Virus record (IMG/VR): IMGVR_UViG_3300029240_000049
Strand: one strand, 5' to 3'
DNA length: 12,306 nucleotides
Source: a virus
The notes below the pieces were generated by a model. The model worked only from the letters and a program-made list of their open reading frames with translations, was not told the DNA's origin and made no database searches. Shown piece after piece: positions 1 through 12,306 of the stretch (its first letter is position 1; each line of letters begins with the position of its first letter). Position numbers and translations under genes: made by a program.

Positions 1-95
1 GTAACATATCCGTGACTGACGGACACGTGTCTCCCCACGGTGGACACCATGTGTGCGTGAACGGTGGACACCATGTGTGCGTGAACGGTGGACAC
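1..95. repeat. Left inverted terminal repeat (ITR-L)
   Basis: Bases 1-78 are the exact reverse complement of 12229-12306. Identity continues to base 95 with 3 mismatches (positions 79, 85, 86). Contains a perfect 10-bp palindrome GACACGTGTC at 22-31. Confidence 0.97.
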
Positions 96-2035: not shown

Positions 2036-3931
2036 TTGGATATCGTTACCGCTTTTGACATTGAAACAAGCAAGCTGCCGGAACAGGATCAAGCTATTAT
2101 GTATATCTGGCAATGGCATTTTGATGGTATTGGTATACTTATAGGCCGAACGTGGCGGGAGCTGCGCATGTTTATAGAACGGTTGGCACGGATCATAGGA
2201 GATGAATATACATTAGTTGTTTTGGTGCATAATCTCTCATATGAGTTTCAATTTCTTCGTACGATCTATGACTTTACTGCTGATGACGTATTTGCATTAG
2301 ACCGCCGCAAAGTGTGTAAATGCACTATGTATGATAAAGCGTTGGAATATCGCTGCACCTATATACATTCCAACATGTCGTTGGCCGCATACACCAAAAA
2401 GTTTAACGTGGAACACCAGAAGCTATCTGGTGATGAGTTTGACTACAAGGTTATACGCTATCCGTGGACACCGCTTACAGATCGTGAGTTGGAATACTGC
2501 TATAATGATGTTATTGGCCTTGTGGAAGCCTATAAAGCGGAAATGGAAATGGACGGCGACAATCTTGCTACAATGCCGCTGACCTCAACAGGCTATGTAC
2601 GGCGAGACGTGAAGCGGGCTATGCGGGTCTGTGGGACAAAGCGTGTATTAGAAGCACAGCCGACTTTGGAAGTGTACCAGCTTTTAAAAGAAGCGTTCCG
2701 GGGTGGTGACACACATGCAAATAGATTTTACACCGGGAAGATCATACCCAATGTGAAAAGCGCGGACAGGTCATCGTCATACCCTGACGTGTTGGTGAAT
2801 TGCAAATTTCCGTTGACAGAGTTTCGCCCGGCAGGTGGATTGACAATCTCGAATCTGATAAAGGCCAAACGTGCGTTTTTGTTCCGGGCAAAATTTACCG
2901 GTTTCCGGCTGCGCGATCCGTACTGGGGTTTTCCGTACATATCGCGGTCAAAGTGTCGTCAGATCATGAATCCCTATGCGGATAACGGTAGAATTTTAAG
3001 TGCTGACTATCTGGAAACAACTTTGACGGACGTTGACTGGAAAATTGTCAAGAAGCAGTACACATGGGATATGGTGGAGGTGACAGACCTGTATTACAGC
3101 AGATATGGATACCTGCCTAATCCGTTGGTTACGACATGCATCGAGTATTACCGCGACAAGACAACGTTGAAAGGCGCACCAGAGGGCAGCTATGAAGCCA
3201 TGCTATATGGCAAGAAAAAAGCTTTGCTAAACAGCATCTATGGCTGCATGGCACAAGATCAATGTAAACAGGGTATCATTTTTGACGGTCAGAATTTTTT
3301 AATAGACGATAAGCCTATTACAGAGCTGCTGGACAAAAACAGTAAAAGAGCGTATCTGTGTTATGCGTGGGGCGTTTGGATAACAGCATGGGCACGGCTG
3401 CGCTTGCAAGAGGGTTTGGAGCTGGCCGGTGATGGTGCTATATATTGTGATACCGATAGCGTTAAGTATGTCGGAGATGTCGACTGGACAGCATACAATA
3501 CAAAGCGTATAAAATCGTCTACAAGGTCAAGCGCTTATGCTGATGATCCAGCCGGTGAACGTCATTACATGGGCGTTTTTGAGTACGAGGGGTCATATGA
3601 TGAGTTTAAGACCCTCGGTGCAAAAAAGTACGCATATACCCAAAACGGGAATTTGCATATAACAATTTCCGGCGTTGAGAAAAGGAAAGGAGCTGACGAG
3701 TTAAAAGCCGCCGGAGGACTTGAAGCCTTTAAGGAGGGCATGGTTTTTATAAAAGGAGGTGGAACCGAAAGCATTTATAATGACGATACCCCATGCAGCA
3801 CGATACAGATAGACGGCCATGATTTGGAAATAGGGCCTAACATCTGCATCAAAGACAGCACATATACCGTTGGTCTGACTGCCGACTATTTAAGAGTGCT
3901 GGAAAAACCTGACAGAATTTATTGTGTTTAG
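2036..3931 (+). CDS. Family B DNA polymerase, protein-primed (phi29 gp2-like) type
   Basis: Exo I DIET (2057-2068), Exo II YCYNDV, motif A DRSSSYP (2765-2785), motif B KALLNSIYG (3218-3244), motif C YCDTDS (3443-3460), KKYAY motif. The context (ITRs, phi29-like virion genes) implies protein priming. The only in-frame start after the upstream stops (1931-1936) is TTG 2036, with a weak or distant SD. Confidence 0.95.
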   Translation: MDIVTAFDIETSKLPEQDQAIMYIWQWHFDGIGILIGRTWRELRMFIERLARIIGDEYTLVVLVHNLSYEFQFLRTIYDFTADDVFALDRRKVCKCTMYDKALEYRCTYIHSNMSLAAYTKKFNVEHQKLSGDEFDYKVIRYPWTPLTDRELEYCYNDVIGLVEAYKAEMEMDGDNLATMPLTSTGYVRRDVKRAMRVCGTKRVLEAQPTLEVYQLLKEAFRGGDTHANRFYTGKIIPNVKSADRSSSYPDVLVNCKFPLTEFRPAGGLTISNLIKAKRAFLFRAKFTGFRLRDPYWGFPYISRSKCRQIMNPYADNGRILSADYLETTLTDVDWKIVKKQYTWDMVEVTDLYYSRYGYLPNPLVTTCIEYYRDKTTLKGAPEGSYEAMLYGKKKALLNSIYGCMAQDQCKQGIIFDGQNFLIDDKPITELLDKNSKRAYLCYAWGVWITAWARLRLQEGLELAGDGAIYCDTDSVKYVGDVDWTAYNTKRIKSSTRSSAYADDPAGERHYMGVFEYEGSYDEFKTLGAKKYAYTQNGNLHITISGVEKRKGADELKAAGGLEAFKEGMVFIKGGGTESIYNDDTPCSTIQIDGHDLEIGPNICIKDSTYTVGLTADYLRVLEKPDRIYCV

Positions 3932-3946
3932 AAAGGGATTATTATC

Positions 3947-4363
3947 ATGAAAAAGAGCACCAAGAGCACCAAGAGCACCAAGAGCACCAAGAGCACCAAG
4001 AGCACCAAGAGCACCAAGAGCACCAAGAGCACCAAGAAGATCAAGCCGATTCGGGTTTCCAGCATGTCCATTATTCGCGCCACGCCGTATGAGGATATGT
4101 ATTTTTTTGACATGATCCTTAACGGTATCAGCATTTACGGCTGTAAGCTGATCGAGGGCGAAAACGGCCGGTTTATCGGGTTCCCGTCCAAGAAGCCTGC
4201 CGAGAAAGGCGGCAAGTGGTATAATCACTGCTGGGCGCCCCTGTCCGAAGACGATACCGCAGAGATCATCGCTGCGGTGCTGGAAGCCTGTGACGAGGAC
4301 GAAGACGTGGACGAAGACGTGGACGAAGACGAGGACGAAGACGACTTACCTTTTAAGGAGTAA
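3947..4363 (+). CDS. Chimeric nucleic-acid-binding protein: basic (KST)x9 N-terminus + SpoVG-like core + acidic SSB-like C-terminal tail
   Basis: The core [62 protein letters not shown] resembles, from memory, SpoVG ([32 protein letters not shown]..P....KIQ.AVL). The C-terminus is about 22 residues that are almost entirely D/E (two V interspersed), ending DDLPFKE. The N-terminus is MK(KST)9KKIKP. Confidence 0.7.
3953..4033. repeat. Nine perfect tandem copies of a 9-bp unit AAGAGCACC (encodes KST)
   Basis: Units start at 3953, 3962 ... 4025, with no substitutions. A partial tenth unit (AAGA) follows. Confidence 0.98.
4292..4345. repeat. Imperfect 12-bp tandem repeat (GACGAAGACGTG-like, about 4.5 copies) encoding the acidic tail
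   Basis: GACGAAGACGTG at 4298-4309 and 4310-4321, with variants at 4322-4333 and 4334-4345 and a partial copy at 4292-4297/4300. Confidence 0.85.
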
Positions 4364-4365
4364 CA

Positions 4366-5388
4366 ATGGGACTGTATCTGCATAGCGGCTATGTAGATAT
4401 CCCGTGGGTGCTGTCCGGTCACCTGCCATTTGTAATAATGGTGGGTGGCCGCGGCACCGGTAAGACTTTCGGTGTGCTGGAATATTTCCGGCAATCGGCG
4501 GTTGATACCGGTAAGCGGTTTATCTACCTGCGCCGCCGCCCTGATGAGACGCGAACAACGGGCATACCGGAGTTGTCGCCGTTCAAGAAGCTGGATGAAT
4601 ACCACGGCTACAACACATTAACAAAAAAGATGGGTAAAGACTGCTACGGTTTTATTGATGAGGAGAGACAGCAGCTTATAGGTTATAGCATGGCTTTGTC
4701 TACCTTTGCAGATGTCCGTGGTATTGATGCGTCAGACGTACAGGCAATCATTTTCGACGAGTTCATCCCGGAACGGCACCGCAGGCCGATAAAAGACGAA
4801 GCAGCAGCATTTTTTAATGCTGTGGAGACGGTCAACCGTAACCGTGAGCTGTCCGGCGGACCTCCTGTACAATGTGTACTGCTATCCAATGCTAACTTGA
4901 TGGGCAATCCTATTTTTCTGGAATTGGGTATTGTCGGCAGGGCTGTCAAAATGTATAAATCAAAAACGGAGATTTATAAAGACGCGGAACGCGGTCTGTT
5001 TCTGGCAATCTTGCAGCGCTCCCCTATTTCGGAAAAGAAAAAAAAGGAAACAGCGCTGTATAAGTTGACAGCCGGTACAGGTTTTGCGGCTATGGCCGTT
5101 GACAACGACTTTTCGGAAGAATGCACAAATCCAAGAACGGCGGTGTTGAAAGAGCTGCGGCCAATTTCCAGCGTGGGCGAAATTACTATTTACCGCCACA
5201 AATCGGAAAAATGGCTATATGTCTCGAGCCATAAGTCAGGATCACCGGAGGAATACAGCAGCGGGTCTATTGATCTATCGCGTTTTCGCATACGGTATAG
5301 TTGGCTTGTGTCGGCCTATTTTTACAAGCAGGTATTTTTTGAAGATTTTTTGTCTGAACTGCTATTCAAAAAGTACATGGATTTGTGA
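4366..5388 (+). CDS. DNA encapsidation (packaging) ATPase, phi29 gp16-like
   Basis: Walker A GGRGTGKT (4444-4467) and Walker B IIFDEF. The N-terminal context VIMVGGRGTGKTF...GKRFIYLRRRPDE mirrors, from memory, phi29 gp16 FVIGARGIGKSY...GEQFIYVRRYKPE. At 340 aa it is similar in size to gp16. RBS AAGGAG. Confidence 0.9.
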   Translation: MGLYLHSGYVDIPWVLSGHLPFVIMVGGRGTGKTFGVLEYFRQSAVDTGKRFIYLRRRPDETRTTGIPELSPFKKLDEYHGYNTLTKKMGKDCYGFIDEERQQLIGYSMALSTFADVRGIDASDVQAIIFDEFIPERHRRPIKDEAAAFFNAVETVNRNRELSGGPPVQCVLLSNANLMGNPIFLELGIVGRAVKMYKSKTEIYKDAERGLFLAILQRSPISEKKKKETALYKLTAGTGFAAMAVDNDFSEECTNPRTAVLKELRPISSVGEITIYRHKSEKWLYVSSHKSGSPEEYSSGSIDLSRFRIRYSWLVSAYFYKQVFFEDFLSELLFKKYMDL

Positions 5389-5394
5389 AAAAAA

Positions 5395-5423
5395 TTGACA
5401 AATGTGCATGGCTGGTATACAAT
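5395..5423 (+). promoter_or_regulatory. Near-consensus sigma-A promoter P2 (candidate late promoter)
   Basis: TTGACA (5395-5400), exactly 17-nt spacer, TACAAT (5418-5423). Shares the TGGTATAC string (5413-5420) with P1. Located in the 144-nt gap between the ATPase and holin genes. Confidence 0.75.
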
Positions 5424-5730: not shown

Positions 5731-6376
5731 AAAAATTAAGATCGCCCTCAGCCCGTCCGATCAGTACAGAAACTTGTACGCATACGGGGACACCAACGAG
5801 GGCTACCAGATGCACTGTGTAGCGGATAAGCTGGTGGAGCATCTTCTGCGCTGCGGTGTGGATGTTGTGTATCTGCCCAGCGGCTATCTGTCAGATCGTG
5901 TCAGGAAAGCAAATATGGCACATGTAGACGGCTATATTGCTCTCCACACCAACGCTTTTGACGGGTCTGTACAGGGAATCCGGGTGCATTGTTACCCGTC
6001 CGACAAAAGCCGGAAATTTGGAAAGTGCATCATGGCCGCACTTGATACGGTGTATGATGGGTCTACCAAATCTAAAATCGTGGAAACTGACAGCCTGTAC
6101 GAGCTCAAATACCCGTTTGCACCGGCAATTCTGCCGGAAATTGGTTTTCATGACAACATTGACGATGCCGAATGGATTGTCAACCACGTTGACCAGATCG
6201 CCGAAGCGCTGGCAAAGGGCATCTGCGAGCACTTCAAAATGCCGTATGTTGCACATGTAACAATCATGTATCACGTGCAGGTCGGGGCATTTGAGAAGCT
6301 GGAAAACGCGGAAAAAATGCTGGCGACTGTGAAACAGGACTACCCGAATGCTTTTATTAAGGAGGTGAGAACATGA
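5714..6376 (+). CDS. Endolysin: N-acetylmuramoyl-L-alanine amidase (Amidase_3-like) with a short C-terminal SPOR-like module
   Basis: YIALHTNAF...GIRVHCY and AILPEIGFHDN motifs are typical of Amidase_3 / PlyPSA-CwlC-type amidases. The C-terminal YHVQVGAFEKLENAEKMLATVKQDYPNAFIKEV is SPOR-like. It overlaps the holin by 17 nt; the start at 5714 or 5717 is ambiguous. Confidence 0.85.
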   Translation: MMATSKKIKIALSPSDQYRNLYAYGDTNEGYQMHCVADKLVEHLLRCGVDVVYLPSGYLSDRVRKANMAHVDGYIALHTNAFDGSVQGIRVHCYPSDKSRKFGKCIMAALDTVYDGSTKSKIVETDSLYELKYPFAPAILPEIGFHDNIDDAEWIVNHVDQIAEALAKGICEHFKMPYVAHVTIMYHVQVGAFEKLENAEKMLATVKQDYPNAFIKEVRT

Positions 6377-6747
6377 CATACAAGGACATTTTGGCGCTTG
6401 CTCATGCCGGTTATAGCGCCGACCAAATCGGACAGCTGGCTATGCTGGAGCAGATGCCCGCGCCTGCTACACCTGCGACACCTGCCGCGTCTGCCGCGCC
6501 TGCTGCACCTGCTGCACCTGCGACACCTGCCGCGCCTGCTGCACCTGCGACACCTGCTGCACCTGCGACACCTGCTGCACCCGCTGCCCCGTTTGACTAT
6601 CAAGCTATGATGGGTGAGCTGCTGGGTATTAAAAATGCAATCCAGACCGGCAATGTGCAGACCAGCCAGCAGCCGAAGCAGCCTATGACGGCAGATCAGA
6701 TTTTGGCAAATATCATCGCCCCGAAACCTATTAAAAAGGAGGAATAA
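6373..6747 (+). CDS. Candidate scaffolding protein with a central Pro/Ala/Thr low-complexity linker (124 aa)
   Basis: ATGA overlap with the endolysin stop. Lies directly upstream of the major capsid gene, the position of phi29 gp7. Small, with helical-looking N- and C-terminal ends. The function is inferred from position. Confidence 0.5.
   Translation: MTYKDILALAHAGYSADQIGQLAMLEQMPAPATPATPAASAAPAAPAAPATPAAPAAPATPAAPATPAAPAAPFDYQAMMGELLGIKNAIQTGNVQTSQQPKQPMTADQILANIIAPKPIKKEE
6457..6591. repeat. Imperfect tandem repeats encoding a 45-residue (P/A/T/S) tract
   Basis: Reiterated CCTGC(T/C)GC(A/G)CCTGCGACA-like units translate to PAPATPATPAASAAPAAPAAPATPAAPAAPATPAAPATPAAPAAP. Confidence 0.9.
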
Positions 6748-12187: not shown

Positions 12188-12222
12188 GTGGTGGACATGT
12201 GACAACGTTACGTGTCCACCAC
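12188..12222. repeat. Near-palindromic hairpin at the inner edge of ITR-R
   Basis: GTGGTGGACA (12188-12197) pairs perfectly with TGTCCACCAC (12213-12222). The pairing is extendable to about 16 bp with two G-T/G-U positions around a 3-nt loop (12204-12206). The 5' arm is an extra, oppositely oriented GGTGGACA motif unique to the right end. It lies 45 nt after the last stop codon, with no U-tract. Confidence 0.8.
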
Positions 12223-12270
12223 TCACGTACACATGGTGTCCACCGTTCACGCACACATGGTGTCCACCGT
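12211..12270. repeat. Mirror-image tandem 24-bp repeats inside ITR-R
   Basis: GTGTCCACC (reverse complement of the GGTGGACAC core) lies at 12212-12220, 12236-12244 and 12260-12268, again 24 bp apart. The innermost copy is slightly diverged. Confidence 0.93.
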
Positions 12271-12306
12271 GGGGAGACACGTGTCCGTCAGTCACGGATA
12301 TGTTAC
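12212..12306. repeat. Right inverted terminal repeat (ITR-R)
   Basis: Reverse complement of 1-95 (92/95 identical by manual base-by-base comparison; the terminal 78 bp are perfect). Confidence 0.97.

Follow-up and report, generated by a model that had tools for sequence, protein, structure and literature searches.

A phage SpoVG-like protein with a basic arm and an SSB-like acidic tail: a candidate accessory of protein-primed replication in a phi29-like genome

Introduction

Which protein takes the part of SSB, the protein that binds single-stranded DNA, in a small phi29-like gut-phage genome where no SSB of a known kind can be recognised? The question is raised by the virus record IMGVR_UViG_3300029240_000049 of IMG/VR, whose full 12,306 nucleotides are referred to here as the window, and in particular by an open reading frame (ORF) of 138 aa located between the gene of the family-B DNA polymerase (PolB) and that of the packaging ATPase. 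The encoded protein joins a lysine-rich N-terminal arm to a core resembling the bacterial protein SpoVG, and finishes in an acidic tail whose tip is reminiscent of the C-terminus of bacterial SSBs. A first-pass annotation, made from the sequence, had described the protein as chimeric and had considered for it the role of a non-OB-fold SSB, of an analogue of the phi29 protein p6 or of a decoy for the host proteins that bind SSB.

Here we propose that the protein is a phage-specific member of the SpoVG superfamily acting as a small nucleic-acid-binding accessory of protein-primed replication, the counterpart of the p5-type SSB of phi29 and possibly with p6-like coating in addition, a reading to which we give somewhat less than an even chance. 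The evidence that carries it is the alternation of SpoVG-like and p5-type genes among related phages.

The gene and its family

The SpoVG-like coding sequence occupies 3947..4363 on the plus strand, stop codon included. The ORF list and the sequence agree with the first-pass annotation in these limits and in the division into three modules, namely an MK(KST)9KKIKP arm, a core of ~80 residues and a D/E tail ending in DDLPFKE. The start lies 16 nt past the PolB stop codon (3929-3931), and a putative Shine-Dalgarno sequence, AAAGGGA (3932..3938, +), can be read directly behind that stop, 8 nt 5' of the ATG; the ATPase gene starts 3 nt beyond the SpoVG-like stop.

Both extensions of the core are encoded by tandem repeats. 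The (KST)9 stretch corresponds to 9.4 copies of the 9-bp unit AAGAGCACC at 3953..4037 (+), found by Tandem Repeats Finder (TRF) with 100% matches and a score of 170, and the acidic tail to 4.4 copies of the 12-bp unit GACGAGGACGAA at 4292..4344 (+), found in a tandem repeat scan. Since the relatives carry AAGAGCACC-type arrays of 2-6 imperfect units, the arm-coding array appears to grow and shrink by slippage. Arm and tail therefore derive from slippage-prone low-complexity DNA and not from fused domains, and the term "chimeric" was an overstatement for what are slippage-generated extensions of a SpoVG domain.

Close homologues number 35, at 55-98% identity and on 10-13 kb phi29-like contigs; with the 138-aa protein they form the 36 sequences that we call the close family. 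An exhaustive profile search gathered 455 representative clusters at E ≤ 1e-3, and the best 150 of these 455, which were listed, are nearly all phage-type proteins of ~100 aa. The profile of what we call the wider family comprises 135 sequences, and the SpoVG-like family was found on phage contigs. The full 138-aa protein gave no match in tblastn against the phage collection, probably owing to low-complexity masking, and the core alone gave weak matches only; PHROGs holds no significant family for the protein. A search for related loci with a narrow alignment yielded 5 viral contigs, and the contig index does not contain the exact protein.

The folded core and its DNA-binding doublet

The core (residues 35-115; 4049..4291, +) is predicted to consist of four beta-strands and a C-terminal helix (residues 101-119). 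Its likeness to SpoVG, noticed by eye in the first-pass annotation, is borne out by profile and structure searches. Pfam family PF04026 matches residues 61-114 of the 138-aa protein with E=1e-4 and 22.8 bits, under the gathering score of 29.6, and 101 of the 135 wider-family members match it individually (best E-value 1.2e-9). With phmmer against the PDB sequences the best matches are SpoVG chains (2i9z, E=3e-4) and the sole other listed chain has E=0.76; the 135-sequence profile finds 2i9z (4.7e-7) and 2i9x (3.1e-6) over nearly the full length and no other PDB family. An AlphaFold2 model built with the family alignment has a predicted local distance difference test (pLDDT) of 87-97 in the core. 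The top ten PDB matches of this model in Foldseek are all SpoVG chains (probability 1.00, E from 3e-4 to 2e-2, template modelling (TM) scores of 0.52-0.60), and the first match after them stands at E=0.58. In BFVD, a library of viral structures, the top matches are phage "putative septation/SpoVG" proteins. A divergent SpoVG domain is thus supported both by the sequence profile and by the predicted structure. Profile and fold place the protein in the SpoVG superfamily; as a single sequence it falls below the Pfam cut-off, and its context is not that of a bacterial gene.

In common with the bacterial SpoVGs (2i9x, 2i9z, 2ia9) the phage protein has a beta-sheet with a C-terminal helix, a size of ~80-100 aa, and the motif G-x-F-(I/V)-x-(F/M)-P-S-K-(K/R) including its basic doublet. 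It differs from them in sharing only ~22-25% identity, in being phage-encoded within a replication/packaging block instead of a chromosomal bacterial gene, and in adding the Lys-rich N-terminal extension, the aromatic residues W/Y91, Y92 and W/Y96, and the acidic tail with its LPF tip. The extra aromatics are conserved in the core of the phage family, together with a KWYN motif.

The basic doublet is formed by K82-K83 of the FPSKK motif (codons 4190..4195, +), which align with PSKR of 2i9z and are equivalent to K50-R51 of S. aureus SpoVG, where each of the two residues is essential for DNA binding (PMC3688583). Lys or Arg is present at both positions in all 36 members of the close family; in the wider family this holds for 71 of 135 sequences at K82 and for 119 of 135 at K83. 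The SpoVG of Listeria binds single-stranded DNA (dissociation constant 1.2 uM) and RNA, and double-stranded DNA not detectably (PMC4959528). A different architecture is seen in P0053, P0129 and P0131, proteins of 180-388 aa in which two to four SpoVG domains follow each other in tandem and the phage-type arm is lacking.

SpoVGs of bacteria bind DNA at specific sites, bind RNA too and show regulatory phenotypes (PMC3688583, PMC4959528), and the phage protein might likewise be a regulator of gene expression, acting at specific DNA or RNA sites on an early-to-late switch or on host transcripts, either as a p4/p6 analogue or post-transcriptionally, with its charged tails as generic disordered modulators. 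In keeping with this, no other transcription regulator can be recognised in the 12-kb genome, and the homologous gene of phage phiCPV4 forms part of a short block of early type at a distance from PolB. However, the helix responsible for the sequence specificity of SpoVG is not conserved relative to the bacterial proteins, and a regulator would leave unexplained the SSB-like tip as well as the mutual exclusivity and shared slot with p5 described below, so that we consider this role improbable.

Genomic context and alternation with p5-type SSBs

The order PolB / SpoVG-like / ATPase is kept in loci L003-L006, L010 and L019, and variants of it occur in L007, L017 and L018. Where PolB identity is down to ~30% the SpoVG-like gene still adjoins PolB and/or the ATPase gene, the orders being PolB / SpoVG-like / ATPase and PolB / ATPase / SpoVG-like. 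One contig of 13 kb has it within the early block, 5' of the terminal-protein candidate and PolB. Homologues are thus to be found beside PolB, where the first-pass annotation had proposed to look for them. Its statement that neither p5 nor p6 is recognisable elsewhere in the genome also holds: no other candidate for an SSB, a p5, a p6, an OB-fold SSB or a DNA-binding protein was recognised in the window with Pfam, PHROGs and a p5 hidden Markov model (HMM).

The closest relatives without a SpoVG-like gene carry a phi29 p5-type SSB instead. This gene occupies the slot between PolB and ATPase in Amedibacillus phage AD70P2 (locus L002; phrog_6243, 5.6e-10), in MT835998 (PF17427, 4.4e-4; phrog_14995, 7.5e-4) and in MT836155 (PF17427, 2.7e-3), and is found elsewhere in the genome of MT836263 (PF17427, 5.9e-9, above the Pfam cut-off). 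The six-frame ORFs of 22 phi29-like genomes or contigs were scanned with HMMs. The scans gave 13 SpoVG-positive loci without a p5-type match and 7 p5-positive genomes, phi29, CS229P2 and CI55P1 included, without a SpoVG-like match, and co-occurrence of the two was observed in none of the 22. CPS1 carries a different annotated SSB straight after PolB and ATPase, and the scans detected neither a SpoVG-like nor a p5-type gene in CpV1, HM2 and susfortuna. On a rough PolB neighbour-joining tree the SpoVG-like and p5 states are interleaved in a way that calls for a minimum of three switches.

The mutual exclusivity, the shared slot and the interleaving on the PolB tree lead us to regard the two genes as apparent non-orthologous replacements of one another in a single functional slot, the strongest argument for an SSB niche. 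The pattern is explained better by such a niche than by any of the rival readings considered here. The SpoVG-like protein resembles the p5-type SSBs (PF17427, phrog_6243, phrog_14995) in size, the latter having ~115-145 aa, in its slot and in the mutually exclusive distribution; it differs in lacking any detectable sequence or profile similarity to them, and both the basic arm and the acidic tail are absent from them. Homology with p5 was rejected (hhalign probability 0.1), as was homology with p6 (hhalign probability 0.3 over 10 columns). An OB-fold SSB (PF00436) was rejected as well, given the fold of SpoVG and no Pfam or PHROG match to an SSB. The 138-aa protein is consequently outside the OB-fold SSB, p5 and p6 families, and judged from its sequence and context it probably works like an SSB. 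For the non-OB SSB analogue of the first-pass annotation, the exclusivity and the slot swaps are new arguments; the function itself is one that we infer.

The same context bears on the name under which these genes are usually filed. Homologues are annotated in databases as "putative septation protein", and spoVG has been listed among phage-borne sporulation genes in a survey of gut phages (PMC10294663), from which one could take the gene for an auxiliary phage copy of host spoVG manipulating septation or sporulation of a spore-forming host. Against it stand the ~22-25% identity to bacterial SpoVG, below the Pfam cut-off, the existence of a large phage-only family with features of its own (arm, KWYN and aromatic motif, tip), and a gene embedded in a replication and packaging block where it alternates with an SSB gene; we regard a sporulation role as very improbable.

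Three hypothetical or unannotated proteins of the PolB-ATPase slot, at 7468-7842 of L002 (AD70P2), 3138-3488 of L021 and 4205-4558 of L023, are divergent p5-type SSBs (phrog_6243, PF17427) and could be re-annotated. In P0101 the N-terminus of a PolB with its exonuclease motif (...AFDIETTS...YIWMF) is fused to a SpoVG-like core; this chimera, probably the product of mis-assembly or of recombination, links PolB and SpoVG-like genes once more.

The acidic tail and its SSB-like tip

The acidic C-terminal tail (residues 116-138; 4292..4360, +) has a net charge of -16. It contains the SSB-like tip DDLPF (4340..4354, +), after which come K137, E138 and the stop codon. The bacterial counterparts of this tip are the SSB C-termini MDFDDDIPF of E. 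coli and ...DDDLPF of Firmicutes. The phage tail is like them in being a disordered acidic stretch that ends in D-D-(I/L)-P-F and is attached to a nucleic-acid-binding domain; it is unlike them in that the core is SpoVG and not OB, the linker is purely D/E where that of SSB is Gly/Gln/Pro-rich, KE stands behind the Phe, and the tip is dispensable in many homologues.

Acidic tails of the close family measure 3-29 aa. A [LVT]PF motif at or near the C-terminus is found in 15 of the 36 sequences, eight of which end exactly in PF and the others 2-3 residues later (KE, ED, DDA); the remaining close homologues have short acidic tails without a PF motif, and the relative from L003 is missing the final five residues (LPFKE). 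Strongly acidic tails are present in 9 of the 135 wider-family members, and six of these nine end in LPF followed by 0-2 residues; tip carriers in the wider family are P0040, P0067, P0122, P0170 and P0183. Several distant tip carriers come from contigs so short that their gene neighbourhood says little. More distantly, gp23 of phiCPV4 ends in ...EPVDDGDIPF and its relatives in GDGDIPF and QDGQIPF. On a short contig, beside a gene with an RNA-ligase domain, the SpoVG proteins P0188 and P0189 end in DDDELPF and DSDSLPF. Among the bacterial SpoVGs that came up alongside them none bears the tip, and in the set of 3448 six-frame ORFs from all phage loci fetched, acidic tails with [LIVMT]PF plus 0-3 residues occur on SpoVG-like proteins only. 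The SSB-style tip of the first-pass annotation is thus a real motif, which recurs in separate, otherwise distant phage SpoVG clades. Its recurrence on SpoVG-like proteins only indicates that the motif is selected and specific to this type of protein, though not essential.

The proteins of phiCPV4 (gp23), phiZP2 and phiCP7R, phages of the Guelinviridae annotated with a "putative SpoVG" (PMC3362512), are the nearest precedent. They share the SpoVG fold of ~100 aa and the phi29-like genome, and for gp23 the hhalign probability is 95%, the tip DDGDIPF is SSB-like and no p5-type SSB was found in its genome. The differences are that gp23 falls into another subclade, nearer to the bacterial SpoVGs, has no basic arm and only a short tail, and is encoded towards the right end of the genome instead of next to PolB. 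In PHROGs it falls into phrog_27338, of "unknown function".

In the complexes of the SSB C-terminus with ExoI, RecQ and chi, docking uses the free carboxylate of the terminal Phe, which trailing residues would remove. The reservation of the first-pass annotation about the KE after the Phe is confirmed by the sequence: the exact D-D-(I/L)-P-F end with a free carboxylate is absent from the 138-aa protein and present in 8 of the 36 close-family members and in the phiCPV4 clade. That residues past the Phe are tolerated argues against strict mimicry of the free carboxylate in those lineages, and slightly favours a non-canonical or phage-encoded pocket.

A tip of this kind could also serve host takeover, the protein being a decoy in which the SSB C-terminus mimic titrates or redirects host RecQ, RecJ, RecG, PriA, Ung or DnaE, for protection of the linear phage DNA or shutdown of host replication, and in which core and arm merely localise the protein on nucleic acid. 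The match of an acidic stretch plus [IL]PF to the bacterial tip, the exact PF ends in eight close homologues and the phiCPV4 clade, and the recurrence of the tip on separate phage SpoVG clades are all compatible with a decoy, and the patchiness of the tip would fit a host-dependent accessory function. But most family members lack the tip and keep arm, core and synteny, which places the conserved function in the core; the 138-aa protein has KE behind its Phe; and the slot-sharing with a p5-type SSB points to a replication role of the whole protein. We accordingly see little chance for the decoy.

The basic arm and its charge balance with the tail

The N-terminal arm (residues 1-34; 3947..4048, +) is rich in lysine, predicted to be disordered and of low AlphaFold2 confidence, with pLDDT below 50 for residues 1-26 in a first model and of 57-58 in a second one. 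All 36 members of the close family have such an arm, rich in Lys, Thr, Ser and Asn and 13-34 aa long, and that of the 138-aa protein is the longest and most basic of all those seen, with a net charge of +13. In the wider family an arm is usual but weaker (median length 17 aa, 21% Lys, median net charge +2). In the wider family, arms are more basic where the tail is acidic (mean net charge +6.0 versus +1.8, p=3.6e-4, without correction for phylogeny), and in the close family the charges of arm and tail are related with a Spearman correlation of 0.52, again without such correction. This co-variation suggests that the charges of the two extensions compensate each other.

An arm so basic and so rich in K, S and T resembles a histone tail, and it raises the possibility of a p6-like or histone-like protein that would coat double-stranded DNA, organise the origin or condense the DNA for packaging, with the arm wrapping the duplex at the inverted terminal repeats or during packaging. 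The gene does abut that of the packaging ATPase, the 24-nt tandem repeats overlapping the terminal repeat (see below) would be possible sites, and phi29 p6 likewise has ~100 aa, is basic at its N-terminus and acidic at its C-terminus, and takes an early place in the replication module. Nevertheless, sequence and profile similarity to p6 is absent (see above), the gene alternating with the SpoVG-like one in relatives is of p5 and not of p6 type, the wider-family arm is weakly basic, and the Listeria SpoVG shows no detectable binding to double-stranded DNA; coating as the principal role is hence a minor prospect.

Proposed mechanism

Returning to the SpoVG-like protein as a replication accessory in the place of p5, we propose the following mechanism. 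During protein-primed strand-displacement replication the SpoVG core would bind the displaced single strands by means of the retained K-K doublet, needed by SpoVG for DNA binding, and of the conserved aromatics W91, Y92 and W96 that it has gained, while the disordered Lys-rich arm may contribute non-specific electrostatic affinity. Off DNA, the acidic tail would neutralise arm and core, probably by folding back as a nucleic-acid mimic. Upon DNA binding the tail would be freed, as in bacterial SSB, T7 gp2.5 and Hfq, and the [LIV]PF motif could then be presented to a docking partner, either one of the host's SSB-interacting proteins or, on the phage side, the polymerase or the terminal protein.

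Precedents for this tail logic exist in proteins of unrelated folds. In T7 gp2.5 an acidic C-terminal tail competes with nucleic acid for a basic surface, and the aromatic residue at its end is essential and makes contact with the polymerase. In SSB the tail peptide has two uses, the recruitment of partners and an interaction with the DNA-binding core of SSB itself (PMC7145534), and the C-terminal domain of Hfq (described in PMC5606850) is another acidic autoinhibitory tail. The acidic tails of gp2.5 and Hfq fit the arm-tail charge co-variation; for the phage protein autoinhibition would follow by analogy. With phi29 p6 it shares the basic N-terminus and acidic C-terminus, and it differs in the profile and in the displaced gene being of p5 type.

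Several points weigh against a role in replication as an SSB counterpart. Of the 36 close-family members 21 lack the LPF tip, as do ~95% of the wider family, and the tip must therefore be dispensable for the core function. In the 138-aa protein the Phe is followed by KE, and in several close relatives by 2-3 residues. The p5-type SSBs of the relatives have no acidic tail whatsoever, so that SSB function in this replication system does not depend on a tail. The SpoVGs of bacteria work as regulators, the Foldseek TM-scores of 0.52-0.60 are moderate, and both charge correlations lack correction for phylogeny. Finally, the sample of 22 genomes or contigs is small and non-random and includes partial loci, the p5 HMM may miss divergent members, and CpV1, HM2 and susfortuna have neither type of gene. 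The first-pass annotation had reasoned that homologues consistently lacking the arm or the tail would speak against its reading; on this count the arm is retained throughout the close family and the tip is not.

A bolder version of the proposal is that the SpoVG fold constitutes an unrecognised class of replicative SSB, neither OB nor p5, which has repeatedly displaced the p5-type protein in phi29-like phages of gut Firmicutes, and that some lineages have convergently evolved the acidic [IL]PF tail in order to plug into, or sabotage, the host SSB interactome. We offer it as a tentative idea, which is rather unlikely to hold in full.

SpoVG-like genes in phi29-like phages of C. perfringens have been known since 2012, reported without a function or a comment on the tip (PMC3362512). 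Our full-text literature searches found no paper tying phage SpoVG proteins to SSB tails, replication or Guelinviridae. The claim of an undescribed architecture can thus stand for the arm and tail, which together with the replication reading and the displacement of SSB were not found in the literature searched, and has to be given up for the SpoVG-like genes as such. Were the proposal correct, it would provide a testable function for a large gene family of small gut phages now called "hypothetical" or "septation protein" (the 455 clusters), and the current interpretation of phage spoVG genes as sporulation hijackers would need correcting. It would also add a new fold to the few SSB architectures and a clear non-orthologous displacement inside a minimal replication module, make of the SSB-like tip on a non-OB scaffold a natural experiment on the SSB C-terminal peptide as a portable docking motif, and inform on the interaction of protein-primed phages with host repair and replication factors. 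Cultured phages are at hand for both states, of the phiCPV4 type on C. perfringens with the SpoVG-like gene and AD70P2 on Amedibacillus with the p5-type SSB.

Other features of the genome

The window begins with a left inverted terminal repeat (1..95) whose partner lies at 12212-12306, the 95-nt arms being 97% complementary. We take it on this ground to be a complete linear genome of 12.3 kb, of the kind replicated by protein priming. Pfam and PHROG matches reveal a phi29-type gene set of PolB, gp16 ATPase, Phi29_MCP and connector. Within it the protein-primed family-B DNA polymerase is encoded at 2036..3931 (+; PF03175, E=3.8e-8; phrog_1907, E=3.4e-61) and the phi29 gp16-type packaging ATPase at 4366..5388 (+; PF05894, E=1.3e-23). 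The nearest cultured relatives are Guelinviridae-type phages, for example AD70P2 with 37% PolB identity. The Rfam scan of the window gave neither a phi29 packaging RNA (pRNA) nor any other RNA family at E ≤ 1, except for a chance match to a snoRNA; a pRNA, if the phage uses one, would be too divergent for recognition by Rfam.

The best sigma70-like promoter match of the window (TTGACA-17-TACAAT, 11 of 12 positions) is located at 5395..5423 (+), in the gap of 145 nt that separates the ATPase stop from the start of the holin gene. This is a match to the consensus alone, and the total of promoter-like sites in the window is not above that of shuffled controls. Its position suggests a boundary between a replication/packaging unit and a lysis/structural unit, and is a weak hint that the SpoVG-like gene forms part of the transcription unit of replication and packaging upstream of it.

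Two exact copies and a third degenerate one of the 24-nt tandem repeat ACGGTGGACACCATGTGTGCGTGA are present at 37-108, overlapping the terminal repeat, and are followed at 94-120 by 1.9 copies of the 14-nt repeat ACCAGGTACCGGGA. These repeats could be candidate binding sites of an origin-recognition or DNA-binding protein. The contigs of four relatives, whose ends are perhaps incomplete, show no tandem repeats of this type in their first 300-400 nt.

In the early region, an ORF of 71 aa (442-657) is Cys-rich (CPNY...C...C..CC) and possibly zinc-binding, with no match in Pfam or PHROGs. A DNA methyltransferase gene follows at 618-1346 (phrog_757, E=6.9e-63), and its listed TTG start overlaps the preceding ORF. 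The methyltransferase is not among the matches in the loci of the relatives, where nothing aligned 5' of the homologue of the next ORF. The latter, of 174 aa (1336-1860), lies directly upstream of PolB and has no family match, its position being that of the phi29 terminal-protein gene; it is kept in relatives including genomes with a p5-type SSB, the identity being 35-40% for MT835998 and MT836263.

Immediately 5' of the gene for the major capsid protein, an ORF of 124 aa (6373-6747) encodes Pro/Ala/Thr repeats (PAAPATPAA...) by means of 9-, 36- and 45-bp tandem repeats at 6458-6587, and has relatives at 45-73% identity. From its composition it appears to be a second slippage-prone low-complexity protein of this genome, situated where a scaffolding protein would be expected.

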